The notes below the pieces were generated by a model that was given only the letters and a program-made list of their open reading frames with translations, was not told the DNA's origin and ran no database searches. A stretch of DNA of 64,000 nt from an uncultured Spirochaetota bacterium (GTDB taxonomy: Bacteria; Spirochaetota; Brevinematia; Brevinematales; JAOACQ01): the NCBI GenBank assembly GCA_963768055.1, contig CAVYGN010000001.1:1312001-1376000 (forward strand), given 5' to 3'. The position numbers were made by a program, and so were the translations under genes. Positions 15,126 to 37,585 of this stretch are shown here, piece by piece. How positions within the stretch are numbered: position 1 is the stretch's first letter; every line of letters begins with the position of its first letter.

Positions 15126-15202
15126 CTGCCACGCTCCCGCTTCAGGATAATAAAACATAATAAATTATAATTCATATTATAAAAATATTCAAAATTCTTT
15201 AC

Positions 15203-15312
15203 GGGCAGTTCTAATATCTCAAGAATATTACCATTTATAATAATATGTTTCTGTTTAACTTAATATGCATGCCCTATGGGCGCTTCCTATCCGAAGGTTT
15301 TTAGAAGCGCCC
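15203..15312. mobile_element. 110-bp MITE copy
   Basis: Inverted copy of 29731-29840 (103/110 identical by manual alignment); ends GGGCAGTTCTAA / TTAGAAGCGCCC. Confidence 0.85.
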
Positions 15313-15675
15313 TTATCTGAATAAGAGAAGTATCCCGATAACGCAGAATACGACTCCGGCCGCCTTGTAAAGGTTGAAAGTCTCGCCCAGGAACAAAACT
15401 GCAAATACAAACAAAAGAACGATAGCGCCGATACTGATTATTGGAAAAGCGACGTTAAGCTCGATTTTTGAAAGCGCAACCGCATAGGGAACAAAAGACA
15501 TGAGGGACAGGAAAGCCCCTGTCAAAAAGAGGGGATTCGATAATATCTTCATGATCGAAGCCGTCATATTGCCTTTCAGATCGACAGCCCCTGTCTGGTT
15601 CATTCCTATTTTTATCAATAACTGCGATACGACATTCAATGCTATCGACAGCAAAAGTAAAAGTTTATAAGCCAT
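15313..15675 (-). CDS. SMR/EamA-family small membrane transporter
   Basis: 4 TM; SQLLIKIG, ALSKIELNVAFP, FLGETFN motifs. Confidence 0.85.
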   Translation of the reverse strand: MAYKLLLLLSIALNVVSQLLIKIGMNQTGAVDLKGNMTASIMKILSNPLFLTGAFLSLMSFVPYAVALSKIELNVAFPIISIGAIVLLFVFAVLFLGETFNLYKAAGVVFCVIGILLLFR

Positions 15676-23489: not shown

Positions 23490-24893
23490 ATGATTTTTAA
23501 ACGATTTAATGATTTTTTAGAGAAGATTACAGGCAATAAAAACGATTTTTCGCTTGAATGCAGACTTTTTCACTTTGTCGTAATATTTGGTATTTTTATA
23601 GCAGTAATTGCAAATATCAATCATATTATTCTGAAAAATCATATTATGTCTGTTATAGTTCCCTCTGTTTTTTCACTTGCCTCCCTCGGAATTTATTATT
23701 TATCACGCTTCAGGAATAAATATGCCCTTTCCTTATGGATATATTTATCGTTACTTTTATTCGTTATGGCACCCTTGCTCTGGTTCTATAACGGAGGATC
23801 CATAGGCGGTTTTCAACATTATATGTTCCTTTTCTTCATAGGAATATGTTCTCTTTTAAAGGGGAAGGCAAGGCTAGTGACACTGGCCATTTTCATTCTG
23901 TTATACGCTTCGCTTATTACGCTGGAATTTTACCATCCGGAATTAATATCAGGATTTAAATTAAGGTTTAACATCTTTTTCGATATAGCTTTCAGCATGG
24001 CATGGAGTATTATAACTGTTGTTATTTTATTTATGGTTTATAGAAATGCTTATGAACAGGAAAAAAATAAGGCCAGTGAATATTCCATCGAACTTGAAAA
24101 AGAAAAAAATGTTTTAAATGTTAAATTTGAAAGGATGAACATGGAGCTTGATATGGCAAGGTCCATTCAAAGGCAGTTCATCGAAGTCAAAAGAAATATC
24201 CCGTACATTGATTTTATTTATTACCCTATGGCGAAACTTGGGGGCGATTTTCTTCATTTTTTCCGCTTCAGGTATTCGGATGAAATCGGAATATTTATCA
24301 GCGATGTCTCAGGACATGGCGTCCCCGGTGCGCTTATAACCGGTATGATATATTCCCATCTGCTGGAAATCGCGCCAAGGATCAAAGATCCCGCCCAGAT
24401 CCTCTCTTCCCTGAACAATGTACTTATCGGCAATACGGGTAATAATTTCATTACGGCTATTTACGGTATTTATTATCCTATAAAAAGGGAGTTCGTTTAT
24501 TCTAATGCCGGCCATAATTCTCCTTATGTAATCGACGGCAAAAGTTGTCATTTGCTGGATGAATCCGGCCGTTCTCTTCCCCTTGCCGTAATGAGCAATT
24601 CCGAACTTGAGGATATCGGGAAATCATATTCGATATCGAGTGTAAAATTTAACAAGGATTCCAAGGTCCTCCTTTATACCGATGGTTTAACCGAAGCGGT
24701 TAATATAAATAAGAAGGATGCCCCGGGTGATTCGCAGAATTATGAAACCATTTACTTTCCGGATTTCCTTGTTCAAATATCGAAGACGACCCCCCAGGAG
24801 TTTTTATACTCTTTGATGGAAAACCTTAAAATATTCCGCGGCGGGGTTGAATTTGACGACGATATTTGCGCCGTATGCATGGACATAAGGTGA
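23490..24893 (+). CDS. Membrane sensor + SpoIIE/PP2C phosphatase (paralogue 1)
   Basis: Multi-TM N-terminus; MARSIQ, LGGDF, SDVSGHG, NAGH, YTDGL, DDIC. Confidence 0.9.
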   Translation: MIFKRFNDFLEKITGNKNDFSLECRLFHFVVIFGIFIAVIANINHIILKNHIMSVIVPSVFSLASLGIYYLSRFRNKYALSLWIYLSLLLFVMAPLLWFYNGGSIGGFQHYMFLFFIGICSLLKGKARLVTLAIFILLYASLITLEFYHPELISGFKLRFNIFFDIAFSMAWSIITVVILFMVYRNAYEQEKNKASEYSIELEKEKNVLNVKFERMNMELDMARSIQRQFIEVKRNIPYIDFIYYPMAKLGGDFLHFFRFRYSDEIGIFISDVSGHGVPGALITGMIYSHLLEIAPRIKDPAQILSSLNNVLIGNTGNNFITAIYGIYYPIKREFVYSNAGHNSPYVIDGKSCHLLDESGRSLPLAVMSNSELEDIGKSYSISSVKFNKDSKVLLYTDGLTEAVNINKKDAPGDSQNYETIYFPDFLVQISKTTPQEFLYSLMENLKIFRGGVEFDDDICAVCMDIR

Positions 24894-24901
24894 AAAAGAA
24901 A

Positions 24902-26305
24902 ATGTTTCGGAATATCATATTAAAATTATTCCAGGCAATTGCCGGAACTAAAGAGCGCTTTACTCTCGAACAAAGGCTGTTCCACGCTGTAATAGCCGCG
25001 GGGGTAATTTTAATACTGATTACAAATATAATCAATATCATAGTGGGCAATAATATCCTGACTACTATAATCCCTACGGCTTTCTCCATTGCGTCTGCCT
25101 TCTGTTATTATATCTCGCGTTTCAGGAATGAATATAAAATCTCCGTATTGCTGTTCCTGATATTGCTGCTTTTTATTATGACCCCCTTGCTCTGGTTCTC
25201 TCGCGGAGGTTCCGCAGGCGGTTTTCAATTTTTCATATTATTATTCAGCCTTGTCCTAAGTGCGATTACAAGGGGAAAAGCCGGAATTTATACTCTCATT
25301 CTTTATATCATAACAACGATAGTCATGCTTATGGTGGAATATTATCACCCCGAATTCGTAATTGGCTATGATTCTAGGTCGGACAGGTATTTCGATGTAG
25401 CCTCCGGCATGACTATATCCATGATTATGAGTGTGATATTGTTTATTGTCTATGTGAATGCTTACGACAGGGAAAAAAAGATGGCAGGGAAATACTCCGC
25501 CGAATTGGAAAAAGAAAGGAATTCCCTGAACGATAAATTTGAAACGATGAACCTGGAACTGAATATGGCAAGGTCCATTCAAAGGCAGTTCATAGGTATG
25601 AAGAAAAATATTCCTTATATCGATTATATTTATCATCCCATGGCCAAGCTCGGAGGTGATTTTCTTCATTTATTTACCTTCGGGAACACTGATGAAATCG
25701 GGATCTTCATCAGCGACGTTTCCGGGCATGGGGTGCCGGGCGCCCTTATAACCGGCATGATCTATTCCCATCTTCTTGAAATAACCCCCCGGACCAGGAA
25801 TCCGGCACAGGTACTTAAGTCGTTAAACGGCGTCCTGTTCGGAAATACCGGCGGCAATTTTATAACTGCTATCTATGGAATATATATCCCGTCAAAGCGG
25901 GAATTTGTATATTCGAATGCGGGGCATAACACTCCTTATATAGTAAAGGACAGAAGTTGCTTTTTCATGGAAGATAAGGGACGTTCTCTTCCTCTCGCTG
26001 TCCTCTCCAATTCCGACCTGGAAGACATGAAAAAGCCTTACCGTTTATCCAGCACAAAGCTTGACAGCGGAACTAAAATTCTGCTTTATACAGACGGCCT
26101 GACCGATACGGTTAATATCCATAGTACGGACTATAATTCGGGGCAGGAGGATTTTGAAAACACTTACCTTCCGGAAATTATCTCCGAACTGATACCGATG
26201 ACTCCCCAGGAATTCTTATATGCTCTGATGGAAAGGCTCAAGCTCTTCAGGGGAGGGGAGGAATTCGATGATGATATTTGTATGGTGTGTGTCGATATCA
26301 GGTGA
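24902..26305 (+). CDS. Membrane sensor + SpoIIE/PP2C phosphatase (paralogue 2)
   Basis: Same architecture and motifs as 23490-24893; GTG 24890 is an alternative start. Confidence 0.9.
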   Translation: MFRNIILKLFQAIAGTKERFTLEQRLFHAVIAAGVILILITNIINIIVGNNILTTIIPTAFSIASAFCYYISRFRNEYKISVLLFLILLLFIMTPLLWFSRGGSAGGFQFFILLFSLVLSAITRGKAGIYTLILYIITTIVMLMVEYYHPEFVIGYDSRSDRYFDVASGMTISMIMSVILFIVYVNAYDREKKMAGKYSAELEKERNSLNDKFETMNLELNMARSIQRQFIGMKKNIPYIDYIYHPMAKLGGDFLHLFTFGNTDEIGIFISDVSGHGVPGALITGMIYSHLLEITPRTRNPAQVLKSLNGVLFGNTGGNFITAIYGIYIPSKREFVYSNAGHNTPYIVKDRSCFFMEDKGRSLPLAVLSNSDLEDMKKPYRLSSTKLDSGTKILLYTDGLTDTVNIHSTDYNSGQEDFENTYLPEIISELIPMTPQEFLYALMERLKLFRGGEEFDDDICMVCVDIR

Positions 26306-27924: not shown

Positions 27925-28675
27925 AACCACAGATTCCACTGATGGCACAGATTAAAATTTTGGATGTTTCTGTGTAATCATAATCTAATTATTAATATCG
28001 AGTGTGAATTTTCACAAATATACAGTCACGGAGTTTTATTTATATATCAATCTTAATTAAGGGCCAGATAATGACTATCTCATCCGAATCTTAACAGCAA
28101 TTGGTCTTGGGAGTATTTTAGGAGCTTATTTTCAAAACAGATTCCAATATAAGAAAGAATTAAAAAAGAAGAATATGAATGGAAACACACAAGATATGGT
28201 GCTATAGTAATTCAAATGCTAACAATTCTACAGTTTGATAAACATGGAACAAGATTTACAAGAAAGCATCGCCAAGATTTGAATACTATTGAAGATTTTG
28301 TTGATGAACTTAAAACAGAACTTTTACACGGGATTATATTTGCGAATGACCAAGTAATAACCACTATATCTGAGTTTATTAAGAAAAAAGACTACAACTC
28401 TTATATAAAGGCCGTTATTGCTAAACGAAAAGATTTATGGGGTAAAAAAACAAAAATTACAGAAGAAATATTAAAAGATATAATCTGAATTATTTTGCTT
28501 TATCAAGTACATAGTTCCGCAATTTTATTAATGAATAATTTCTTCGAAACTCTCTGTGAATTTATTTCATTTTGTAAAAAATTCTTAGTGTTCTTTGTTA
28601 TGAGGACATAATTTCAGTTGTAATTTTATATGGATTTCACAGAAAACATCCGTGAAATCTGTGAAATCTGTGGTT
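27925..28675. mobile_element. AT-rich cassette B bounded by 9-mer-unit inverted ends
   Basis: Left AACCACAGATTCCACTGATGGCACAGATT, right ATCCGTGAAATCTGTGAAATCTGTGGTT; perfect 11-bp TIR. Confidence 0.65.
28071..28488 (+). pseudogene. Frameshifted single-TM hypothetical protein (cassette B cargo)
   Basis: Reconstructs as (M)DYLIRILTAIGLGSILGAYFQNRFQYKKELK/EEYEWKHTRYGAIVIQMLTIL...RKDLWGKK with shifts near the ATG and at the A6 run 28162-28167. Confidence 0.6.
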
Positions 28676-28795
28676 ACATTTATTTTTCAGATCCAAAATT
28701 CAATTGGGTTTCTATAATAAAAAGGATAGGCATTAAATTGAAATCCGATAATTTTTATAGTATACTTATTTTGAATAAACATTTCGGGGCTATAA

Positions 28796-29422
28796 ATGCG
28801 GCACCTGATTTTAATAATCCTTGGAGTAATGCTATTTGCCTGTTGCACACCGGCAAAAAAACCGGAAACAACAGTAACATATCAAAAACGCCTGCTGGTC
28901 GCTGTCGGCGATATACAGAATCAGACGGACGATACAAATTACGATTCCATCCTGGATCCTCTTACCGGGAGTTTTATAGATGCGCTGCAAAAAACCGGAT
29001 GTTTCCGGCTTGTCGAACGCCAGCGGCTAAAAAGCGTTTTGGAAGAATTGAAACTCGGAATGGCCGGATTGACCGATCCCTCGCAAAGCAAGGAGATTGG
29101 AAAACTCCTGGGAGTCGATGCGATCCTGTTAATAGATCTTACATCCGTCGTTTATGAAAATGACAAAAAAAGCGTAGGCAGCTTCATCGAACGCGGCAGC
29201 GAAACATTCAAGGTAATTTCGGATGCACGTCTTGTGGCAGTAGATACAGGAGAGATTTACGCTTCATCAAGCCATTCAGTCACATTGGAGAACTCATATG
29301 AAAAGGTCGGGAGTATTATGAACGGCCAGATGGCGGATAAGAAAGCCATGGTACAGGAAGCGATGCAGAAATCGGTTGAATTCCTGGCCCATGATATAAG
29401 CAGCCAGGTCCCTAGAAATTGA
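28796..29422 (+). CDS. CsgG/HfaB-family lipoprotein
   Basis: Lipoprotein signal LFACC; FRLVERQRLKSVLEEL, IGKLLGVDAIL, ARLVAVDTGEI. Confidence 0.85.
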   Translation: MRHLILIILGVMLFACCTPAKKPETTVTYQKRLLVAVGDIQNQTDDTNYDSILDPLTGSFIDALQKTGCFRLVERQRLKSVLEELKLGMAGLTDPSQSKEIGKLLGVDAILLIDLTSVVYENDKKSVGSFIERGSETFKVISDARLVAVDTGEIYASSSHSVTLENSYEKVGSIMNGQMADKKAMVQEAMQKSVEFLAHDISSQVPRN

Positions 29423-29730
29423 TACGTCAACTATTCGGAATTACAAGTATCGCTTAGCAGAATACCGAATTCATCCCCTCCGATACGCGAAATAATATCA
29501 TTTTCACGTACACTTTAATATCGCTTTTATCATTAGAGCACCTTCGATCCTACAATCAGCATAAAATGAGACAAAATAATAGTCAATAATAAAAAAACGG
29601 GAATTTAATTTATTAAAAAAATAAAAATTTGTAAAATGTTTGATTATTTATTAAATTAATTAAGGGTTTCAAGTACCCTGCAGGCGCAAACATATCTGCA
29701 GGCTACAATTTAGAATGCCGATAATATAAA

Positions 29731-29840
29731 GGGCGCTTCTAAAAACCTTCGGATAGGAAGCGCCCATAGGGCATGCATATAGAGTTAAGCAGAAGCATGT
29801 TATAACAAATGGTAATATTCTTGAGATATTAGAACTGCCC
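29731..29840. mobile_element. 110-bp MITE copy
   Basis: Inverted copy of 15203-15312; contains hairpin GGGCGCTTC...cTTCGg...GAAGCGCCC; ends 27 bp before the ATG at 29868. Confidence 0.85.
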
Positions 29841-29867
29841 TAAAGAATTTTATTATGGAATATAAAG

Positions 29868-31898
29868 ATGAGCTTCGGCAATATTGTAAGTCCGGTTAAT
29901 ACCGGTCAAAGTTTAACGGAATTTTTCGAAGAAATACCGTTTCCGGTACTGAGGATCTCCAGGGATGGCGTCATTTTAAAGGCTAACAAGGGCAGCTGGA
30001 TCATATTATCATACTGGCAGAGGGATGAAGGGCAGGCTGTTCCTCCGGAATTTATGGAAATTCTGAATAAATCCATCCAAATTGAATCCAACAATGAAAT
30101 AGAATTACAGATCGGATTTAAAATATTCTTACTTGCAATTGTATCCGTATCAAATAGCGGTTATATCGATCTTTTCGGTTTTGATATAACGCAAAGAAAA
30201 CAGATCGAAAAAAAACTTCAGCTTAACGCTCAGGTTTTTGAATCCGCGACTGAAGCGATCATGATTACCGATACCGACCAGCGAATCCTGGATGTAAACA
30301 ACGCATTCTGTAATATTACCGGCTATGAACGCGAAGAGATCCTGGGTGAAAATGCAAGAATTCTTCAGTCGGGAAAGCATAGTCCTGAATTTTATCAGGA
30401 ATTATGGAATTCGGTCAATGAGAAGGGAAGCTGGCAGGGAGAGATATGGGACCGTAAGAAAAACGGGGATATTTATCCGAAATTGCTTACGATCAGTTCA
30501 GTGGTCAATGAAGAAGGCAAGGTCATAAGATATGTCGGATTGTTTTCGGATATCAGCGTTATGAAGGAATCGGAAGAAAAACTCTATCATATGGCTAACT
30601 TTGACGTTCTTACCGGTCTCGTTAACCGGAGATATTTCCAGGATCAGCTTGAAAAAAATCTGCAGCATGCAAGAAGATTGAAAGATCTGCTGGCCTTGAT
30701 GTTTATAGACCTGGATGGTTTTAAACTTCTCAATGATAATTTCGGGCATCAAGCCGGAGATCAGACCCTACGCATCGTTTCCGAAAGGCTAGTGGGAAGT
30801 GTAAGGGACACGGATATTGTAGCCAGAATGGGGGGAGACGAATTTACTATAATACTTCCCTTTATCAAAAGCTCTCAAAATATTGTGACGATTGCCGAAA
30901 AAATCCTTAAACATATCATTCAGCCTTTAAAACTTAAAAACGCCGAACTTTTTATTAGCGCAAGTATCGGGATCGCGATTTTTCCCAACGATGCAAAAAG
31001 CGCCGAAGAATTGGTCCAGAATGCCGATGCCGCCCTATACAGGGCAAAGCAGATAGGAAAAAACCTTTACCAGTTTTTTTCTCCCGAAATGAATAAATAT
31101 GTAAAAAACAGGTTGTCAATCCAGACAAAGCTGCGTCATGCCCTGGAGAAAAATCAATTCAGAATATATTATCAGCCTCAATACGATATTAAGAATAATT
31201 GCATTATAGGGATGGAATCCCTTTTACGGTGGAAAACGGGAAGCAACAATTTCATTGATCCCGATTATTTTATCCCAATTGCCGAAGAAACAGGCCTGAT
31301 TAACGAAATCGGGGAGTTTGTCCTTCGTCATGCCTGTGAGCAGGGGAAAAAATGGCTGGATGAAGGACTTTTGCATATTCCAATATCCGTCAATATATCG
31401 GTTATCCAATTACGCCGTCCCGAATTTATAAAAAAAATAAAATCGATCATTAAAGAATCCGGTTTCCCTCCTGACAAACTTGAATTCGAGCTTACCGAAA
31501 CGATCCTCATTGAAAATGTCGGAGATATTCAGAATAAGCTGGGAGAGCTTAAATTATTGGGATGCTCGATAGTAATCGACGACTTTGGGACAAAATATTC
31601 ATCATTCTCTTATTTAAAGATCCTTCCGATAGATAAATTGAAGATCGATAGATCTTTTATTCAGGATATTACGGAGAACGCTAAAAGCGCGGATATTGTA
31701 AAGGCAATTATCGCCATGGGCCGAAACCTGAAATTGACGGTTATTACGGAAGGAGTTGAAACTCAGGAACAGATCGATTTTTTAAGGGAGAACGGATGTT
31801 TTTATATACAGGGTTTTTATTTCAGCAATCCTGTTCCTGCTCCGCAGATCCGCAATCTATTGCTTTGTGAAAAACGAACCGCCAAGGGAGGGTCTTAG
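29868..31898 (+). CDS. PAS-PAS-GGDEF-EAL diguanylate cyclase/phosphodiesterase
   Basis: PAS (ITGYEREEILG...WQGEIWDRKKNG), RDTD I-site, intact GGDEF, ESLLRW, DDFGTKYSS. Confidence 0.93.
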   Translation: MSFGNIVSPVNTGQSLTEFFEEIPFPVLRISRDGVILKANKGSWIILSYWQRDEGQAVPPEFMEILNKSIQIESNNEIELQIGFKIFLLAIVSVSNSGYIDLFGFDITQRKQIEKKLQLNAQVFESATEAIMITDTDQRILDVNNAFCNITGYEREEILGENARILQSGKHSPEFYQELWNSVNEKGSWQGEIWDRKKNGDIYPKLLTISSVVNEEGKVIRYVGLFSDISVMKESEEKLYHMANFDVLTGLVNRRYFQDQLEKNLQHARRLKDLLALMFIDLDGFKLLNDNFGHQAGDQTLRIVSERLVGSVRDTDIVARMGGDEFTIILPFIKSSQNIVTIAEKILKHIIQPLKLKNAELFISASIGIAIFPNDAKSAEELVQNADAALYRAKQIGKNLYQFFSPEMNKYVKNRLSIQTKLRHALEKNQFRIYYQPQYDIKNNCIIGMESLLRWKTGSNNFIDPDYFIPIAEETGLINEIGEFVLRHACEQGKKWLDEGLLHIPISVNISVIQLRRPEFIKKIKSIIKESGFPPDKLEFELTETILIENVGDIQNKLGELKLLGCSIVIDDFGTKYSSFSYLKILPIDKLKIDRSFIQDITENAKSADIVKAIIAMGRNLKLTVITEGVETQEQIDFLRENGCFYIQGFYFSNPVPAPQIRNLLLCEKRTAKGGS

Positions 31899-31900
31899 CG

Positions 31901-32386
31901 ATGAAAACCGAATTTAACCAGATTATCAACCCTGACTGGAATGAAATCGATCGCCTTTATAATGCGGCCAACGATTTTTTCTTTTCCTATTTTAATGCCG
32001 AATACACCGAAATGTTTACAATGATCACCTGCGAACTTGCTGAAAACAGCATAAAATACGGGGATTTTAAAAATAATATCAATAAAATTGAAATCAACGT
32101 CAAGATCATAGATAAAAGAATCTATATTTTAGTGAAGAACCCTGTAGGGGAATTTGCAAAGCCTTATCTCACGGAGCTTGATAAAACGATACAATGGGTG
32201 CGGGGTTTCCAGGACCCTTATGAGGCGTACATAGAAAGATTGAAGGAAATCTCAATGGAACCGTTCGATAACAATAAAAGCGGCCTCGGGTTAGTAAGAA
32301 TTTCTTATGAAGGGCGCGCGACATTAGACTTCTTCATTAATGAAGAAAAAATATTGAACGTCTCCGCCGTTTCATTAATTAAGTAA
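31901..32386 (+). CDS. HATPase-fold Ser/Thr kinase, SiaB/anti-sigma-like
   Basis: N-box CELAENSIKYG and G-box SGLGLVRI in a 161-aa stand-alone protein. Confidence 0.75.
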   Translation: MKTEFNQIINPDWNEIDRLYNAANDFFFSYFNAEYTEMFTMITCELAENSIKYGDFKNNINKIEINVKIIDKRIYILVKNPVGEFAKPYLTELDKTIQWVRGFQDPYEAYIERLKEISMEPFDNNKSGLGLVRISYEGRATLDFFINEEKILNVSAVSLIK

Positions 32387-32405
32387 TTGATTTTGGGGGA
32401 ATTAT

Positions 32406-32780
32406 ATGAGTTCGACAAACGAAACATTCACCAATGCCCAGCTACAGCTCGAAAGGTCTGAAGAAGGGAATTCCATTATCCTGCGCCTGCTCGGTAAGAG
32501 CATTTTACGCAATCCCAATGAATTTATAATGCCTGTCCTGCTGGAAACCGTCACGAAGGCGGCGGAGCAAAAAAAACGATTAATTATCGATTTCAGCGAC
32601 CTGGTTTATATGAACTCTTCCACCCTTTCCCCCTTTATAAAAATCCTGGAGAAAATCAGGATAGGCGATGGAGAGATCACATTGCTGTATAAAAAGGCAT
32701 TGAAATGGCAGGATATATCGTTCTCGGCTCTGGTAATTTTTCAAACTAATGATAAAAGAATAGAGATCAAGGGGGTTTAA
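32406..32780 (+). CDS. STAS/SiaC-like phospho-acceptor protein
   Basis: LRLLGKSILRNPNEFIMPVL...IIDFSDLVYMNSST, matching the STAS/SiaC phosphosite loop. Confidence 0.7.
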   Translation: MSSTNETFTNAQLQLERSEEGNSIILRLLGKSILRNPNEFIMPVLLETVTKAAEQKKRLIIDFSDLVYMNSSTLSPFIKILEKIRIGDGEITLLYKKALKWQDISFSALVIFQTNDKRIEIKGV

Positions 32781-32781
32781 A

Positions 32782-34176
32782 GTGGAAAATATTCCTAAAA
32801 TATTTTCCGGTTTCCTTACTACAAAATCTGAAAAAGTTGAGATAGAAGCCCGATATGCGACTAAATATTCGGTTTTAATAGTTCTTAAGGAAAATATTAA
32901 TATTGAAGAAATCGTTAATCTTGAACTGCAGGTTGAAAACAATCTTGTGCCGATAGGGCCATGCAGGATAATAATGGCAACAGAAAACAAGGGAAAAGTA
33001 TTCCATATTCTGCCTTCAACAAATATCCACAATTTTGAGAAACTTTTCTACCGCTCGAAGATAGAGAACCTTGAAGCGGATTCCTTGAGCCTGCCTCTAA
33101 TGATAGATTATAAAAATAAAATCAAGACCGAGTTTAAAGAATATGTTACAAATCTCACTTACGACCTCAGTATTTATACTTATTTACTGGGCCGGATGGA
33201 TATAGCTTCCAGAGACGAACCGGCCGAAGTAAAAAATTATATTCAGCAGGTCCTCATAAACGGAATGGGGGCTAACCTAAGGGTCTATCTTGAAAATTCA
33301 TTGTGGTCCCTTGAACAGATTGTTAAAAATTTCAGCGATGAAGAACATGAGCACCATGGTTTTTATTTCCGAAGGCAGCTCTGGTTCATGCTCCTCCAGG
33401 CCCCTATAATGGCAAGATCGAACCTTAAACCTCGAGGTTATAACGGGGATTCCGAGATGATGAGAATGATCTATCAAAACGATTACCTGGGTAACACGAC
33501 ATTCGGAAAAATACTTCATAAATTCTCTATGGATCAGCCCGCCGCCCAGTCGGTCCGCAACAGAAGGACTGAAATAGTAAAAAAGTATTATTCCGTCAGG
33601 CAAAACATTAAGGTCAATCCGGATGAAAAAATACGCATATTAACAGTCGCATGCGGTCCGGCGGTTGAAATAAGGGACATTTTAAAGTCAAAGGAAGATT
33701 GCGAGAGCCTGCATTTTTCCCTGCTCGACCAGGATGAAAAGGCCTTATCCGAAGCCGTTTCTTTAATCAATGTGGTTGAAAGGTCTTTTTTAACGAAAGT
33801 GTCCCTGGATATAATAAAAGAATCGGTCAGAATTATGCTCATTAATCCGGATTTTATAAACAGGTGGGGCAGTTTTCATTTTATCTATTCTATGGGCTTG
33901 TTCGATTATTTAACCGCCCCTGTTGCTTCCGCCGTCTTAAAAAAGTTATACGAATTGCTGACCCCTGGAGGCGAGATGGTGATAGGAAACCTGAATCCTT
34001 CAAACCCCAGCCGGCGTTTTATGGAATACTGGCATGACTGGAAAATTATATACCGGACTGAGGATGAGTTTTTAGAACTGGCGAATGAGATTCAAGGCGG
34101 GGAATGCAATATCGAATTTGATGAAACAAAAATACAAATGCTCTTATGCATCAAAAAAGGGAAATCAAATGAGTAA
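32782..34176 (+). CDS. Class I SAM methyltransferase, PhcB-like (3-hydroxy fatty acid methyl ester synthase family)
   Basis: KPRGYNGDSEMM, AAQSVRNR, ILTVACGPAVEI, LLDQDEKAL, YSMGLFDYL, LTPGGEMVIGN, W-x-IIYR. Confidence 0.75.
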   Translation: MENIPKIFSGFLTTKSEKVEIEARYATKYSVLIVLKENINIEEIVNLELQVENNLVPIGPCRIIMATENKGKVFHILPSTNIHNFEKLFYRSKIENLEADSLSLPLMIDYKNKIKTEFKEYVTNLTYDLSIYTYLLGRMDIASRDEPAEVKNYIQQVLINGMGANLRVYLENSLWSLEQIVKNFSDEEHEHHGFYFRRQLWFMLLQAPIMARSNLKPRGYNGDSEMMRMIYQNDYLGNTTFGKILHKFSMDQPAAQSVRNRRTEIVKKYYSVRQNIKVNPDEKIRILTVACGPAVEIRDILKSKEDCESLHFSLLDQDEKALSEAVSLINVVERSFLTKVSLDIIKESVRIMLINPDFINRWGSFHFIYSMGLFDYLTAPVASAVLKKLYELLTPGGEMVIGNLNPSNPSRRFMEYWHDWKIIYRTEDEFLELANEIQGGECNIEFDETKIQMLLCIKKGKSNE

Positions 34177-35629
34177 TGGTAAAATCAAATTGAATTTACG
34201 GCGTTTTTTCTCCGACAGCCGCATCGAGCAACTGTCTTTAGAGGCGATTGAATCGGGCGATTTTCATTCCTACCAGACGGTCATAATGCATGACTGGCTC
34301 CAGACGCTTACAGCCCTGGCGGTCGTTCTTGTCCCCGCTTTCTTTCTGCTTGACGTCTTCATGATGCCTGAGAGCAGCTTCCTGCCTTTATTTGCCTTAT
34401 ACAGGGGCATTTCGGCTTTACTGGTAATAATCCAGGTGATTATAATTCGCAATACAAGGCCCGGACGCCTTTCATACTTTCATGGTTATTTTATTACCCT
34501 TCAGATAGGATTTATAATCAGCTTAATGACAAATAATCTGGGGGGATTCGACTCAAGCTATTATGCCGGCTTGAATCTAGTCATTATAGGGGTAAATTTA
34601 TTGATGCCCTGGAAAGCCTACCATACCGGAATAAATTCCCTGATAATATTATTGATGTATATTTCAATAAATCTCCTGTCGCCCCACGTTTTTTCTACCC
34701 ATTACCTAATCAATAATCTATCCTTCCTTGTTTCGACTTCTATTTTAGCGATCAGCATCAATTTTGTCCGTTATATTCTCATTAAGAAAGAATTCAACCT
34801 CCTCGTCGAATTAAAAAAGGCTAAAGACGCTCTATGGAGCGAGATCGAACTCGCGAAAAGAATTCAAATGGCGCTGCTTCCTCAGCTTAAACAGCTTACA
34901 GGTTTTCATGTAGCCGATATCATGATCCCGGCAAAAGATGTGGGCGGCGATTATTACGATATTATAGAAACCGAACGCGGCCAGAGATGGGTGGCGATCG
35001 GAGACGTTGCGGGACATGGCGTGGATTCGGGTCTTATAATGATGATGGCCCAGACGACGATAATGACACTGATCAAAGGGAACCGGGCCATGAAAATAAC
35101 GGATATACTTAACGAAACCAATAATGTTTTAAGAGAGGATATCTCCAGGCTCGGTTCGAATCATTATATGACCCTTATGCTGTTGAACCTTGAAGACAAT
35201 AAAATAACTGTTGCGGGCCATCATCAGGATCTTTTATTATATCATGCCAGAGAAAATAAAATCGAGGTGATCGAAACCAATGGAACATGGCTTGGAATTA
35301 CCGATAATATAAGCGGCTATATGGAAATAAAAACTTTCAATATAAAAGAAGGCGATACTATACTTTTATTCACGGACGGGGCTACGGAAAGAATAAATGA
35401 AAACGGTGAAATGTACGGCCAGGAAAGGCTTATGGAAACATTCTGCAAATACGCCCCCCTGCCGGTTGAAAAAACGCTTGAACTCCTTCTTTCAGATATT
35501 CAGTCGTTTCAGATAGACCAGGAAGACGATATTACCCTTATTATATTAAAAAAGGAAACTTCCGGGGATGACAAAGCCAACCGGATGAGCATAAAAAAGA
35601 AACGGCCGGCTCGAAAAAGTCATAAATAA
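34169..35629 (+). CDS. Multi-TM sensor + SpoIIE/PP2C phosphatase
   Basis: TM region with GGFDSSYYAGLNLV; VGGDYYD, GDVAGHG, FTDG, DDITL; overlaps the methyltransferase stop. Confidence 0.88.
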   Translation: MSNGKIKLNLRRFFSDSRIEQLSLEAIESGDFHSYQTVIMHDWLQTLTALAVVLVPAFFLLDVFMMPESSFLPLFALYRGISALLVIIQVIIIRNTRPGRLSYFHGYFITLQIGFIISLMTNNLGGFDSSYYAGLNLVIIGVNLLMPWKAYHTGINSLIILLMYISINLLSPHVFSTHYLINNLSFLVSTSILAISINFVRYILIKKEFNLLVELKKAKDALWSEIELAKRIQMALLPQLKQLTGFHVADIMIPAKDVGGDYYDIIETERGQRWVAIGDVAGHGVDSGLIMMMAQTTIMTLIKGNRAMKITDILNETNNVLREDISRLGSNHYMTLMLLNLEDNKITVAGHHQDLLLYHARENKIEVIETNGTWLGITDNISGYMEIKTFNIKEGDTILLFTDGATERINENGEMYGQERLMETFCKYAPLPVEKTLELLLSDIQSFQIDQEDDITLIILKKETSGDDKANRMSIKKKRPARKSHK

Positions 35630-35691
35630 ATGGAGGTGTCACGCATGACCAGTACTACTTGCGATCCTTTCGACCAGACAAAAGAGGTTTT

Positions 35692-36099
35692 ATGAATATC
35701 TTTGAAGCGATAAGGGATGAAAGCATAGAAAAGGTAAAAGAAGCGATAGAAAACGGAGCTGACATCAACGAAAAAGATCCCGACGGCATGTCGGTATTAA
35801 TGAAAATAATCGATTCAAATAATTTCGATAACCGCATTGAAGCCGTAAAACTGCTGATAGACAAGGGTGTTTTAATTAATGAAAAGAATCCGCTTGGGTG
35901 GACTGCCCTGGCTTTCGCTTCGAAAAACAATCTGCTGGAGATCGCCGAGCTGCTGATCATTAGCGGAGCCGATGTGAAAGCAAACGGTATTTATAACGGG
36001 GACGAGGGAAGCATTACCGGCAATATAGCGTTTCTCTGCGCCATTTATAACAGGAACGATGAAATGAAAAAACTGCTTAGCGATCATGGAGCAAAATAA
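35692..36099 (+). CDS. Ankyrin repeat protein
   Basis: GADINEKD, GWTALAFA, LLIISGADV, LLSDHGA; GAGG RBS. Confidence 0.88.
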   Translation: MNIFEAIRDESIEKVKEAIENGADINEKDPDGMSVLMKIIDSNNFDNRIEAVKLLIDKGVLINEKNPLGWTALAFASKNNLLEIAELLIISGADVKANGIYNGDEGSITGNIAFLCAIYNRNDEMKKLLSDHGAK

Positions 36100-36322
36100 A
36101 ATTCTTACAATCCCTATTCCATCGGTGAAATAATCAGATTGACACAAAAAAAAGAGCTTGTTCTTGCAGAAAATAATTTAATTAACTATAATATTACCGT
36201 TATTTATAGCAAATACGCTTTAGCATCATGATTTGACGAAAAATATTTCAATCGGACAAAAATTAAATAAATAGTAATTAATAAATGATTTTGTTGAAGG
36301 GGGTTGTATATAAAAAAGGGGG

Positions 36323-37585
36323 ATGTTTCCTATGTCGTTAAAGCAGATCATACCGTTCCTTATCCTAGGGCTTTTCTTCAGTTGCGGCCCCAGTAAAAGC
36401 GATACTGTTTTAAACAGTCTGACCAACAAGGACAAAGCCACGATATTGAACAAAAAAGGCGTATCGATGTACAAAACTATGGTGGATAACGGCGACCTGA
36501 AAAGCGCGCCGGACGTGAAAAACATTTTCCAGCAGGCGCTGGAATTTGATCCGAAGAACAGCGACTCGCTTTCGTATATTGCAAAAGTAGATAAGTTTGT
36601 CAGCAGTTTCATCGACAAATATATCAACGCCGCTAAAGCAAATATGAACAAGAAGAAAAGAACGGATGCCGACGATTACGCTCTTTGCACCACTCTTCAA
36701 AAAGCAGGGACAATAGATCCGAACAACAAGGATTTAATCGTCTTAAAGGATAGTTCAAAAGATATCCGTGAAAAATTCGCGAAAAAAATGCAGTCTTCCG
36801 GAGACGCCGCCCTTACCGCCTCGAAAACTTCAAAAAACAAGGATGCCCAGGAAAAGCAGGTGTTCAAGGCTATTCAGTTTTATAATATGGGCCTGGCCGC
36901 CTCCACCGGGCAGGATTCGTCTCTTAATTCCAAAAAGTCCGAAGCCGTGGGCATTATTTCAACCAAAATCGATTCCATGTTAAGCGATGCAAGAGCTCTG
37001 GTAAACTCTAAAAAATACAAGGACGCGGATGCGCTCGCCAGGAAAATCGTTCCCTACAATCTTGCCGCCGACCATAAATATGACGACCAGATAAAAAAAC
37101 TTCAATACGATATCAATTTTGCTTGGGCAGGCCAGCTTTTCGATTCCGGAAAGCTGGATGCCGCTTCCGATAAAATAGATGCGGCTGTACGCTACAACAA
37201 AACGGACGAGGCTGTCGCCCTCCAGGCCAAGATTCAGGAAAAAAAGGATAAAGCGGATATCGCCGCCTCCTTCCCCGCATGGGTGGAAAATATCGACGAA
37301 CTCATATCCCGGATGGATTTTTATACCGCTACGCAGAAAATCAATTATATAGAGGCCAGGTTAAAGGACGAGCCGAGAAAGGCGCAGCTTGAGGCAAGGA
37401 AAAAAAGGATGCTTGGCCAGGTTGAAACTCTTTATAAAACGGCAGTCGATAATTTCGTTAATGAGAATTATGACGATGCCGTTAGCCAGTTCCAAGGCGT
37501 TCTGGCGGTCTCGCCGGGTTATAAGGATTCCGACAATTACCTGCAGGAAGCCAAATCCAAGGAAAAGATCCTGAAATCTTATTAA
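36323..37585 (+). CDS. TPR-like helical lipoprotein
   Basis: Lipobox LFFSC; helical repeats; C-terminal PGYKDSDNYL. Confidence 0.7.
   Translation: MFPMSLKQIIPFLILGLFFSCGPSKSDTVLNSLTNKDKATILNKKGVSMYKTMVDNGDLKSAPDVKNIFQQALEFDPKNSDSLSYIAKVDKFVSSFIDKYINAAKANMNKKKRTDADDYALCTTLQKAGTIDPNNKDLIVLKDSSKDIREKFAKKMQSSGDAALTASKTSKNKDAQEKQVFKAIQFYNMGLAASTGQDSSLNSKKSEAVGIISTKIDSMLSDARALVNSKKYKDADALARKIVPYNLAADHKYDDQIKKLQYDINFAWAGQLFDSGKLDAASDKIDAAVRYNKTDEAVALQAKIQEKKDKADIAASFPAWVENIDELISRMDFYTATQKINYIEARLKDEPRKAQLEARKKRMLGQVETLYKTAVDNFVNENYDDAVSQFQGVLAVSPGYKDSDNYLQEAKSKEKILKSY

Follow-up and report, generated by a model that had tools for sequence, protein, structure and literature searches.

What does a methyltransferase related to an autoinducer synthase do when its gene is packed together with those of a partner-switching kinase and a membrane phosphatase, and which protein does such a switch control? 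This question was raised by five same-strand open reading frames (ORFs) at positions 29868–35629 of the window, i.e. the whole 64-kb stretch of DNA analysed here. Their coordinates confirmed the co-oriented arrangement with gaps of 2, 19, 1 and −8 bases given in a sequence-only reading of this DNA, and all motifs quoted in that reading were found. The forward strand encodes a PAS-like/PAS/GGDEF/EAL protein (29868–31898, 676 amino acids; assigned by ORF, Pfam and motifs), a stand-alone kinase of the anti-sigma/SiaB type with Bergerat fold (31901–32386, 161 amino acids), a putative STAS/SiaC-like phosphoprotein (32406–32780, 124 amino acids), a PhcB-family class I SAM methyltransferase (32782–34176, 464 amino acids, GTG start) and a membrane sensor-phosphatase (34169–35629, 486 amino acids, or 514 from an alternative in-frame ATG at 34085). 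Pfam recognized PAS, GGDEF, EAL, SiaC/STAS and SpoIIE domains, with weak class I methyltransferase matches and no match for the kinase, which was assigned from its predicted model fold. Two PAS domains had been read in the first protein; the second (residues 121–230) scored along with GGDEF and EAL, but the first did not. The gene downstream of the sensor-phosphatase encodes an ankyrin-repeat protein. Promoter and terminator scans were no better than chance (25 versus 20.4 and 7 versus 7.2, respectively), and Rfam gave no match in 28000–37000 of the window.

The conserved unit was found to consist of four genes, kinase, STAS, methyltransferase and membrane PP2C phosphatase, which stood together in 15 of 17 GTDB loci; conservation as a unit held for these four but not for GGDEF-EAL. 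The linkage of the four is far beyond chance, and the fifth gene is linked in one subclade only. Among 401 genomes, searched with kinase and sensor profiles built from cassette members, the kinase and synthase subfamilies paired 1:1 in 33 of 33 places, and methyltransferase and sensor, present in 53 genomes each, occurred together in 43 (7 would be expected if they were independent, but related genomes are not independent). The methyltransferase was accompanied by the sensor in 62 of 80 metagenome loci, and two loci (L131 and L139) had no sensor within more than 5 kb of downstream DNA. The synthase-sensor pair spans spirochaetes and contigs of 31–74% GC, and clade proteins were named from Leptospira borgpetersenii, L. 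weilii, L. mayottensis, L. alexanderi, L. alstonii, L. yasudae and L. johnsonii. Methyltransferase relatives without any kinase were still paired with the sensor, and more distant homologues adjoin unrelated genes or end a polyketide synthase. The same sensor domain was also found on histidine kinases, CheA-like kinases with CheX/CheY, class III cyclases, GGDEF, HD and MCP proteins. Ten of the 53 sensor-bearing genomes had no methyltransferase match, and the two examined (L155 and L156) carry the sensor domain on chemoreceptors. As a separate observation, L093 showed a kinase(1–117)-methyltransferase(110–464) fusion, one residue off P0006; this single case, possibly a deletion or misassembly, was given no weight.

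Comparison of the methyltransferase with the PhcB clade by hhalign gave a probability of 100 (E = 3.1e-44, 432 columns, 22% identity). The protein is 31% identical over 248 amino acids to P0418, a Cupriavidus necator protein that bears the name PhcB, and many of its close homologues, searched for with residues 190–464, carry the PhcB product name in JGI. In a quick tree of 109 rows with the outgroup not resolved, PhcB rows formed their own branch (10 rows, SH-aLRT 100) and the window's enzyme fell in a separate 50-row branch (99). The idea of a PhcB-like synthase therefore stood at the level of the family, whereas the enzyme groups outside the Burkholderiales PhcB clade, a placement that the sequence-only reading had named as evidence against itself. 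By sequence comparison the enzyme is a PhcB-family member in its own clade, and since it shares only 22–31% identity with PhcB, its product may differ. Proteins of Cupriavidus, Paraburkholderia, Janthinobacterium and Ralstonia pickettii served in the PhcB and PhcS comparisons in place of those of R. solanacearum. The model of the enzyme (pLDDT 95.6) comprises a six-strand N-terminal beta domain, a helical domain and a catalytic domain, the last bearing the motif KPRGYNGD (33427–33450). No PDB relative was found by sequence, and fold searches covering residues 208–462 returned general class I methyltransferases only (best 3ocj, Z 20.0, rmsd 5.7, 252 aligned), which have no bearing on the substrate. 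The N-terminal domains of the enzyme and PhcB do not align by themselves; in more distant relatives a PilZ domain occupies this place, and profile comparison of the window's N-terminus with PilZ gave 0.3%.

The sensor-phosphatase consists of a PhcS-type, MASE8-like membrane domain (about 34247–34834), a coiled-coil linker and a SpoIIE/PP2C domain (about 34979–35551). The membrane domain, which is almost entirely intramembrane, matched the PhcS-type sensor domain by hhalign at 97.6% (E = 3.2e-12, 174 columns) and in a separate comparison at 97.2%, where the PhcS side was represented by Paraburkholderia, Massilia, Janthinobacterium and Ralstonia pickettii proteins; an unrelated PP2C membrane domain from the same window scored 0.4% in a two-sequence control. 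Both sides share the motifs LDY-x-x-P, FA-x-x-R and G-x-x-S-x-(Y/F)-Y-A-G-L. The proposal of a PhcS sensor domain placed on a phosphatase instead of a histidine kinase was thus borne out by the domain match and the SpoIIE/PP2C fusion, and the two membrane domains are homologous by profile comparison. Pfam MASE8 (PF20968) matched neither the window's sensor nor nine orthologues, and PhcS-type controls likewise missed or fell under the cut-off in this Pfam copy, while the first ESM Atlas match of the sensor (0.94) was to a cluster with 11% MASE8. Under the circuit proposed below, the orphan MASE8-like domain gains a candidate ligand class.

The motifs of a partner switch were intact. The kinase has an intact N-box (E45-E48-N49-K52-G54) and S127-G-L-G box, the phosphatase retains GGD, DVAGHG, TDG and DD, and the STAS protein carries Y68-M-N70-S71-S72-T73 (32607–32624), of which S71, S72 and T73 are invariant in 20 of 20 members and S71 occupies the position of SiaC T68. 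The module is complete by motifs, from which kinase and phosphatase activity is inferred. The further assignment of this switch to SiaABCD did not hold: kinase and STAS resemble the Sia proteins by fold or motif, yet they are not SiaB/SiaC orthologues. The kinase model resembled SiaB (6kko, Z 15.2, rmsd 3.2, 147 aligned) and UsfX (Z 15.1, rmsd 2.1, 120 aligned) equally, with ties to the anti-sigma factors SpoIIAB and RsbW as well. SiaABCD membership was rejected as all four NCBIfam Sia models were far under cut-off or without match: the SiaB model found no match in the window's kinase at E 0.1 and matched one of 20 members (E = 0.003), the STAS protein scored 13.9 against a cut-off of 150 (NF038265), the sensor-phosphatase 75 bits against 700 (NF038263, matching residues 214–460 alone) and the GGDEF-EAL protein 137 against 290 (NF038266). 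In Pfam SiaC, the STAS protein passed narrowly (24.8 bits, cut-off 24.5), with Ser in place of T68, and two orthologues fell under the cut-off. The slr1658/slr1659 superfamily regulators (NF047703 and NF047705) were the best family for kinase and STAS in 20 of 20 members each, although at 42.6 and 26.7 bits against a cut-off of 100.

A clue to the target of the switch came from loci in which STAS was lost, at least twice in a 76-row tree. Among six STAS-less kinases, E48 was kept in none, N49 in two and S127 in one, whereas the other 70 kept them in 70 of 70. D94, Q98, G102, P106, Y136, D143 and S155 were nevertheless kept in six of six. As exceptions, an intact N-box persists in L103, which lacks STAS, and in L117, whose only STAS is divergent and lies 4 kb away (L117 was counted among the 70). 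Judging by these residues, the kinase decayed catalytically where STAS was lost yet retained one surface, which includes a helical hairpin of residues 94–108 (32180–32224; D94, Q98, W99, R101, G102, Q104 and P106). The idea that the kinase binds the synthase preceded the complex model.

A complex model of kinase and methyltransferase scored 0.63, against 0.01 for the best of three controls. In calibration, 116 of 157 solved pairs and two of 215 mismatched pairs passed the score mark, as did seven of 44 blind neighbours; this calibration holds only roughly for the row-matched custom alignments from which the complex was folded. Model runs agreed in at least 77% of contacts, with a partner pLDDT of at least 74. 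In the model, kinase residues 94–108 and 141–148 face methyltransferase residues 186–194, 216–221, 348–356, 376–385 and 415–423, with R350-D94 and V381-D143 (methyltransferase-kinase) among the closest pairs; the kinase surface spans the active-site cleft, at which loop 102–106 is placed. The model therefore predicts that the kinase grips the synthase, and the synthase is a likely target of the partner switch that went unnoticed in the sequence-only reading. Since the modelled interface excludes the N-box and G-box, STAS and methyltransferase need not compete for the kinase, which counts against the proposed coupling. All 90 of the kinase-linked sequences that cover the site have R350, whereas the residue is His in five of five PhcB proteins. 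However, R350 is also present in L133, L139, L147 and L070, where no kinase adjoins the methyltransferase, and the L132 enzyme carries the complete set of cassette-type interface residues with no kinase inside 6 kb; in part, these residues therefore mark the clade.

Taken together, we propose, with a probability of roughly 0.5, a Phc-type autoinducer circuit whose synthase is under feedback from its partner switch; feedback sign, signal chemistry and outputs are all putative. The product of the methyltransferase would be a small, hydrophobic methyl ester whose acid, as PhcB homology suggests, is probably a hydroxy or another fatty acid. The PhcS-type membrane domain, by virtue of its homology, would sense the ester and set the activity of the fused PP2C, which with the kinase would set phosphorylation of STAS S71, as their motifs imply. 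The effector of the switch would be the synthase, with the kinase hairpin predicted to dock across its active-site cleft, a contact backed by the gene-loss patterns, and STAS phosphorylation would decide whether or how the kinase docks. Cell-wide outputs may arise via other proteins with the same sensor domain, perhaps also via the lineage-specific first gene. Loci that have lost STAS and PP2C still keep catalytically dead kinases, which makes it somewhat likelier that the bound kinase activates the synthase, or is needed as its subunit, than that it purely inhibits. Signal synthesis in Ralstonia is affected by PhcQ, which suggests that an operon partner regulates PhcB activity (PMC6989110). 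A wider claim, that this is a widespread undescribed autoinducer system with post-translational positive feedback via PhcS-type sensor-phosphatase, STAS and an anti-sigma-type kinase with the synthase as client, whose signal is spread by kinases, cyclases and chemoreceptors bearing the sensor domain, including to synthase-less species, is made tentatively.

The sequence-only reading had instead taken c-di-GMP as the purpose of the switch, unphosphorylated STAS binding the GGDEF-EAL protein as SiaC binds SiaD. The GGDEF-EAL gene is indeed translationally coupled here (gap 2), its GGDEF, RxxD I-site and EAL catalytic motifs are intact, the STAS protein has the SiaC YxN(T/S)S motif, and PilZ genes flank some cassette loci. 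In the 76-row tree, where many loci show little upstream DNA, GGDEF-EAL lay upstream of the kinase in nine of the 14 rows that make up the window's clade, and none of the remaining rows had a scoring copy. Across 29 genome loci, the upstream gene was GGDEF-EAL in three and a class III cyclase, another cyclic-nucleotide enzyme in the same slot, in ten (10 of 10 Leptospira loci); neither was seen in the remaining 16, at which only about 360–640 bases are visible, and the close relatives L003, L004 and L024 have no GGDEF-EAL gene. Moreover, SiaC binds a long stalk (PMC8457831), and no such stalk is apparent between the PAS and GGDEF domains of the window's protein; the Sia models also fail their cut-offs. 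Relay to c-di-GMP as a general output was rejected on the 3-of-29 count and the missing stalk, and we regard c-di-GMP as the purpose of the switch as unlikely. The GGDEF-EAL gene is an accessory, an add-on in one subclade; as no second sensor copy was found in the source genome, its protein remains a plausible local output there.

Other readings keep parts of the proposed circuit. The product could be a membrane-resident methylated lipid or metabolite sensed in the cell's own membrane for homeostasis or as a timer, with the same kinase-synthase feedback and no exported signal; the intramembrane sensor, the clade distinct from PhcB and the varied neighbourhoods of distant homologues would suit it, but synthase-less genomes with chemoreceptor sensors fit a signal from other cells and PhcB products are extracellular signals (PMC7694676), making this improbable. 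The docking could also be a false positive, as do occur among complex models, with the kinase sequestering a sigma factor or some regulator whose gene lies elsewhere, as its fold ties to UsfX, SpoIIAB and RsbW and the use of such proteins by Leptospira (LvrC; PMC13269768) would allow. We consider this quite unlikely given the strict 1:1 kinase-methyltransferase linkage, the persistence of the kinase beside the methyltransferase after STAS loss, the coincidence of the conserved surface with the predicted interface, and the lack of a sigma factor gene among the neighbours scanned (50 selected proteins). Lastly, PhcB chemistry is carboxyl methylation, and with loop 102–106 modelled at the cleft the enzyme could be a protein carboxyl methyltransferase that marks the kinase hairpin for adaptation. 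This is very unlikely: the acidic loop residue D105 is Asn, Ala or Ser in many orthologues, kinase-less relatives still pair with the sensor, and the enzyme is homologous to a small-molecule synthase.

The proposed circuit suggests that spirochaetes, several Leptospira species among them, may communicate chemically by way of a feedback loop not described before. No description of the cassette was found in a literature search that reached few of the subscription papers on PhcB biochemistry. Fatty acid methyl ester signalling has been characterized, in the literature found, only in Ralstonia and close relatives, and the cassette indicates that spirochaetes have these two components as well, connected to a wide range of outputs. 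In Leptospira, neither luxI nor luxS is present, and which genes serve quorum sensing there is still to be settled (PMC13515436); if true, the circuit would be a candidate native cell-density system for part of the genus, and the clade proteins in named species make the question directly testable. An anti-sigma-type kinase gating a biosynthetic enzyme would likewise be a new partner-switching output and a new route to autoinduction.

Among known systems, the Phc system of Ralstonia and Cupriavidus (PhcB synthase, PhcS sensor kinase, PhcR and PhcQ) shares a homologous synthase that matches in length and motifs, a homologous membrane sensor domain encoded directly downstream of it, and hints of synthase control by an operon partner (PhcQ; PMC6989110). 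The cassette differs in that the sensor sits on a PP2C phosphatase instead of HisKA-HATPase, a Ser kinase and STAS replace PhcR and PhcQ, and the synthase belongs to a separate clade with an N-terminal domain not alignable alone. SiaABCD of Pseudomonas aeruginosa likewise has a membrane PP2C, a small Bergerat kinase, a STAS-like protein with YxN(T/S)S and, as in the source genome, an adjacent c-di-GMP enzyme; however, the cassette has a different sensor domain and a signal synthase within the operon, its cyclase is neither conserved nor equipped with the SiaD stalk, and its predicted effector is a partner of the kinase, not of the STAS protein. The slr1658/slr1659 regulators are the closest sequence family for kinase and STAS, though under cut-off, and none of the papers listed for them shows a link to a PhcB-like enzyme. 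With SpoIIE/SpoIIAA/SpoIIAB and RsbU/RsbV/RsbW, the cassette shares folds and the three-part logic of phosphatase, STAS and kinase, whereas the client predicted for its kinase, held via an inserted helical hairpin, is a biosynthetic enzyme instead of a sigma factor.

Re-reading of the window agreed with the five ORFs, the gaps of 2, 19, 1 and −8 bp and every motif quoted in the sequence-only reading. Domain scans found PAS, GGDEF and EAL domains in the first protein (29868–31898), weak slr1658-superfamily matches without any Pfam family in the 161-aa kinase (31901–32386), SiaC/STAS in the 124-aa STAS protein (32406–32780), weak class I methyltransferase matches in the 464-aa methyltransferase (MT, 32782–34176) and SpoIIE in the 486-aa membrane protein (34169–35629), and the catalytic motifs of GGDEF (with RxxD), EAL and PP2C were intact. 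The kinase, STAS, MT and membrane domain each occur once in the source genome by tblastn, and PP2C-domain matches number about 15. Two tandem membrane PP2C genes at 23490–26305, 46% identical to each other, carry another membrane domain without a PhcS-type match. Immediately 5′ of the first gene lies a dispersed, REP- or MITE-like repeat of ~120 bases forming a GC-rich hairpin (29729–29851); it has 41 matches in the genome in all, of which 22 besides the repeat itself are at least 75 bases long, one at ~15191–15314.

The conserved unit consists of four genes, kinase, STAS, MT and sensor-PP2C. Among 17 GTDB loci drawn from a pattern search with 46 stretches, this order was kept in 15, and all taxon-named loci were of Spirochaetota, two titles giving no taxon; the proposed co-conservation of five genes thus holds for these four, but not for GGDEF-EAL as a general member. 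The two exceptions, L006 and L008, have no STAS gene and carry the same membrane domain on an Hpt-HATPase kinase, followed by CheX. In profile searches of 401 genomes of the phylum, to which proteins named Leptospira also belong, 53 had an MT match, and a strong class comprised 33 places in 30 genomes (E of 4.5e-95 or better; next full-domain matches, 1e-38), including at least 8 of the 19 genomes of genus g23. All four genes were present at all 29 non-self strong-MT loci retrieved, a contig end cutting the PP2C in one. The kinase profile matched 109 of the 401 genomes, and its strong class was also 33 places (E of 5.4e-58 or better; next, 2.3e-30), all of which adjoin the 33 strong MT places by coordinates. 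Although made from cassette kinases, this profile could still detect solo copies, and no solo strong-class copy was found among the 401 genomes. One genome, G140, has an MT fragment at a contig end without a strong kinase; two others (G353 and G208; L052, L058/L059) have the complete cassette twice, ~13–14 kb apart, and G107 has two copies on separate contigs. In metagenomes, the best 80 of 565 loci, which include possible duplicates and span 31–74% GC, contained the sensor domain in 62, the kinase in 47 and all four genes in 30, where 16 of the 18 sensor-less loci hold less than 2 kb downstream.

The gene preceding the kinase is variable. In the ~360–640 bases visible 5′ of the kinase at 29 genome loci, an EAL tail was found in 3, a class III cyclase tail in 10 and neither in 16; GGDEF-EAL was the first gene in 4 of the 17 GTDB loci. 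In an MT tree of 76 rows, GGDEF-EAL adjoined the cassette in one 14-row clade only (9 rows, the window among them), and a REC-PAS-cyclase gene only in the clade of family f15 (10 rows), whose proteins are named Leptospira. With GGDEF-EAL restricted in this way, c-di-GMP is a lineage-specific attachment to the cassette, and a role as general output of the switch is not supported.

The synthase had been described as PhcB-like. Many close MT homologues bear the PhcB product name in JGI, and a profile-profile alignment of 42 cassette MTs with 59 PhcB-clade proteins gave a probability of 100 (E = 3.1e-44, 22% identity across 432 columns); taken by themselves, the first 105 residues did not align between these profiles. 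The homology is therefore retained, but not membership of the PhcB branch: on a quick 109-row tree of the catalytic region, built from every second of 150 representatives and chosen loci, PhcB rows were separate from the 50-row branch holding the window MT. Fold searches with the MT model (pLDDT 95.6) returned class I methyltransferase and nothing more specific. In the available text of PMC7694676, PMC6989110 and PMC2842291, the PhcB product is 3-OH MAME or 3-OH PAME, sensed by PhcS, and by homology the cassette MT would make a methyl-ester signal. PhcB and PhcS sequences were reached by way of a conjugative plasmid of Paraburkholderia graminis, which carries a phcB-phcS-like operon with genes for an MT, a histidine kinase and two receivers (L018:5437–9812); a search from there retrieved Cupriavidus proteins in a cluster with PhcB-named entries.

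Several other homologues were encountered. Genomes of f15 encode a second MT type of 487 aa (L054:370–3667, with a PilZ match, L064:8955–12240 and L065:6627–9921), which has a sensor-PP2C partner in reverse order and no adjacent kinase or STAS. The terminal domain of a KS-ACP polyketide synthase on an Enterobacter plasmid (L071:6604–9741) shares 31% identity with the catalytic region of the MT and is perhaps a methylating release domain. Short homologues on many Rhizobium plasmids made up 124 of 142 plasmid matches; in the single case examined (L070:1457–4756), the gene and a neighbouring GGDEF-EAL gene are divergently oriented, and the N-terminus of the GGDEF-EAL product gave no sensor-profile match. 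Two proteins of L. borgpetersenii serovar Hardjo-bovis (P0395 and P0398) have 382 and 374 aa, compared with 460–467 aa in the rest of their cluster.

The resemblance of the membrane part of 34169–35629 to the PhcS sensor was confirmed, as two profile comparisons with PhcS-type kinases gave 97.2% and 97.6% over ~175 columns versus 0.4% for a control membrane domain from the window. The motifs LDY-x-x-P, FA-x-x-R and S-x-(Y/F)-Y-A-G-L are common to both. Pfam MASE8 matched 88 of 91 PhcS-named kinases in a precomputed table; the available text of one relevant paper mentions it by name only (10.1101/2021.11.05.467447). The sensor profile matched 53 of the 401 genomes, 43 of which were also MT-positive and 10 sensor only, and the 10 MT-positive genomes without sensor had distant MTs only. 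Other fusion partners of the domain are histidine kinases, CheA-like kinases, class III cyclases, GGDEF and HD domains, and MCPs. CheA-like Hpt-HATPase kinases bearing it, with CheX and a CheY-like receiver adjoining (L006:9367–11993, L008:9361–12353, L001:11238–14156, L053:7369–10257, L016:2628–5521), form a recurring motility-type output beside the cassette, and it occurs on HAMP-MCP chemoreceptors (L155:2818–4386, L156:2334–3926, L159:2131–3726). In genus g26, where one sensor protein was domain-scanned, a strong sensor match was found in 7 of 8 genomes and an MT match in none, which suggests chemotaxis to a signal produced by others.

The likely client of the kinase is the synthase. By tblastn, 13 loci keep the kinase beside the MT without STAS; several are short, one (L093) is a fusion, and the absence is certain only where the two genes abut. 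The genomes of L006 and L008, whose completeness was not given, have generic STAS proteins only (E about 1e-5), and the MT tree requires at least two STAS losses. In six STAS-less rows of the kinase alignment, E48 was kept in 0, N49 in 2, K52 in 2 and S127 in 1, versus 70 of 70 in other rows; D94, Q98, G102, P106, Y136, D143 and S155 were retained in all six, and W99 and Q104 in 2 and 4. Exceptions to this decay pattern are L103 and L117, which have intact N-boxes. Kinase–MT binding was predicted before complex modelling, and the model supports this prediction, with a score of 0.63 (best of 3 controls, 0.01). In calibration, the mark was attained for 116 of 157 solved complexes and for 2 of 215 mismatched pairs; these figures are approximate for the custom alignments used here. 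Contact agreement was at least 77% and partner pLDDT at least 74. The modelled kinase face (87–116 and 139–159) is the surface retained in STAS-less kinases, and the MT face (94–110, 186–194, 216–221 (KPRGY), 317, 348–356, 376–385 and 415–423) surrounds the catalytic cleft as judged from motifs. PDB searches found no comparable complex, so that the score is unlikely to echo a deposited structure. MT R350, which pairs with kinase D94, was kept in 75/75 and 15/15 kinase-linked sequences, compared with H in 5/5 PhcB; of 20 loci with 2.5 kb flanks and no kinase, 5 have R. In L132, where no kinase lies close by, the entire interface is kept.

Sequence or comparison establishes the order of the genes, their homologies, the intactness of the motifs, the co-occurrence and the decay pattern. 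In the mechanism that we favour, with a probability of about 0.5 as a whole, the membrane domain would sense the methyl-ester signal and control PP2C, STAS would be phosphorylated, and its state would be passed on to the MT through the predicted kinase contact. We lean to the bound kinase activating the MT or being a needed subunit, because a dead kinase kept without the switch fits such a role better than a permanent inhibitor. The loop would be positive or not according to whether the ligand inhibits or stimulates PP2C. In anti-sigma kinases, STAS binding takes place close to the ATP site; as the ATP-binding boxes lie outside the modelled interface, the effect of STAS may be allosteric or may pass via the dimer of the kinase. 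Activity-level control of the PhcB family has a precedent in outline, since, in the available text of the Ralstonia papers, phcB expression is unchanged in phcA or phcK mutants (PMC7694676) and PhcQ affects signal synthesis (PMC6989110).

No description of the cassette was found in the parts of the literature searched, with subscription papers and supplements outside its scope. For Leptospira, the available text of the one paper bearing the signal's name cites the signal only for PhcR (PMC13269768), and that of another states that the genus lacks luxI and luxS, with its genes for signalling still unresolved (PMC13515436).

The switch had been called SiaABCD-like. The partner-switch motifs and a SiaB-like fold stand: STAS S71 lies within Y-x-N-S-S, the counterpart of Y65, N67, T68 and S69 of SiaC (available text of PMC8457831), and the kinase model (pLDDT 86.9) matched SiaB (Z 15.2, rmsd 3.2, 147 aligned) in a tie with UsfX (Z 15.1, rmsd 2.1, 120 aligned), followed by SpoIIAB (13.6), which Foldseek ranked top, with histidine kinases far behind (8.3). 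Membership of SiaABCD does not: the kinase and STAS had slr1658 and slr1659 superfamilies as best family in 20 of 20 each, with scores below cut-off, and SiaB matched just 1 of 20 kinases. Judged from these sequences, the kinase/STAS/PP2C set would work like a partner switch distinct from SiaABCD, and the cassette is real, conserved and built from Phc and partner-switch parts in a new arrangement.
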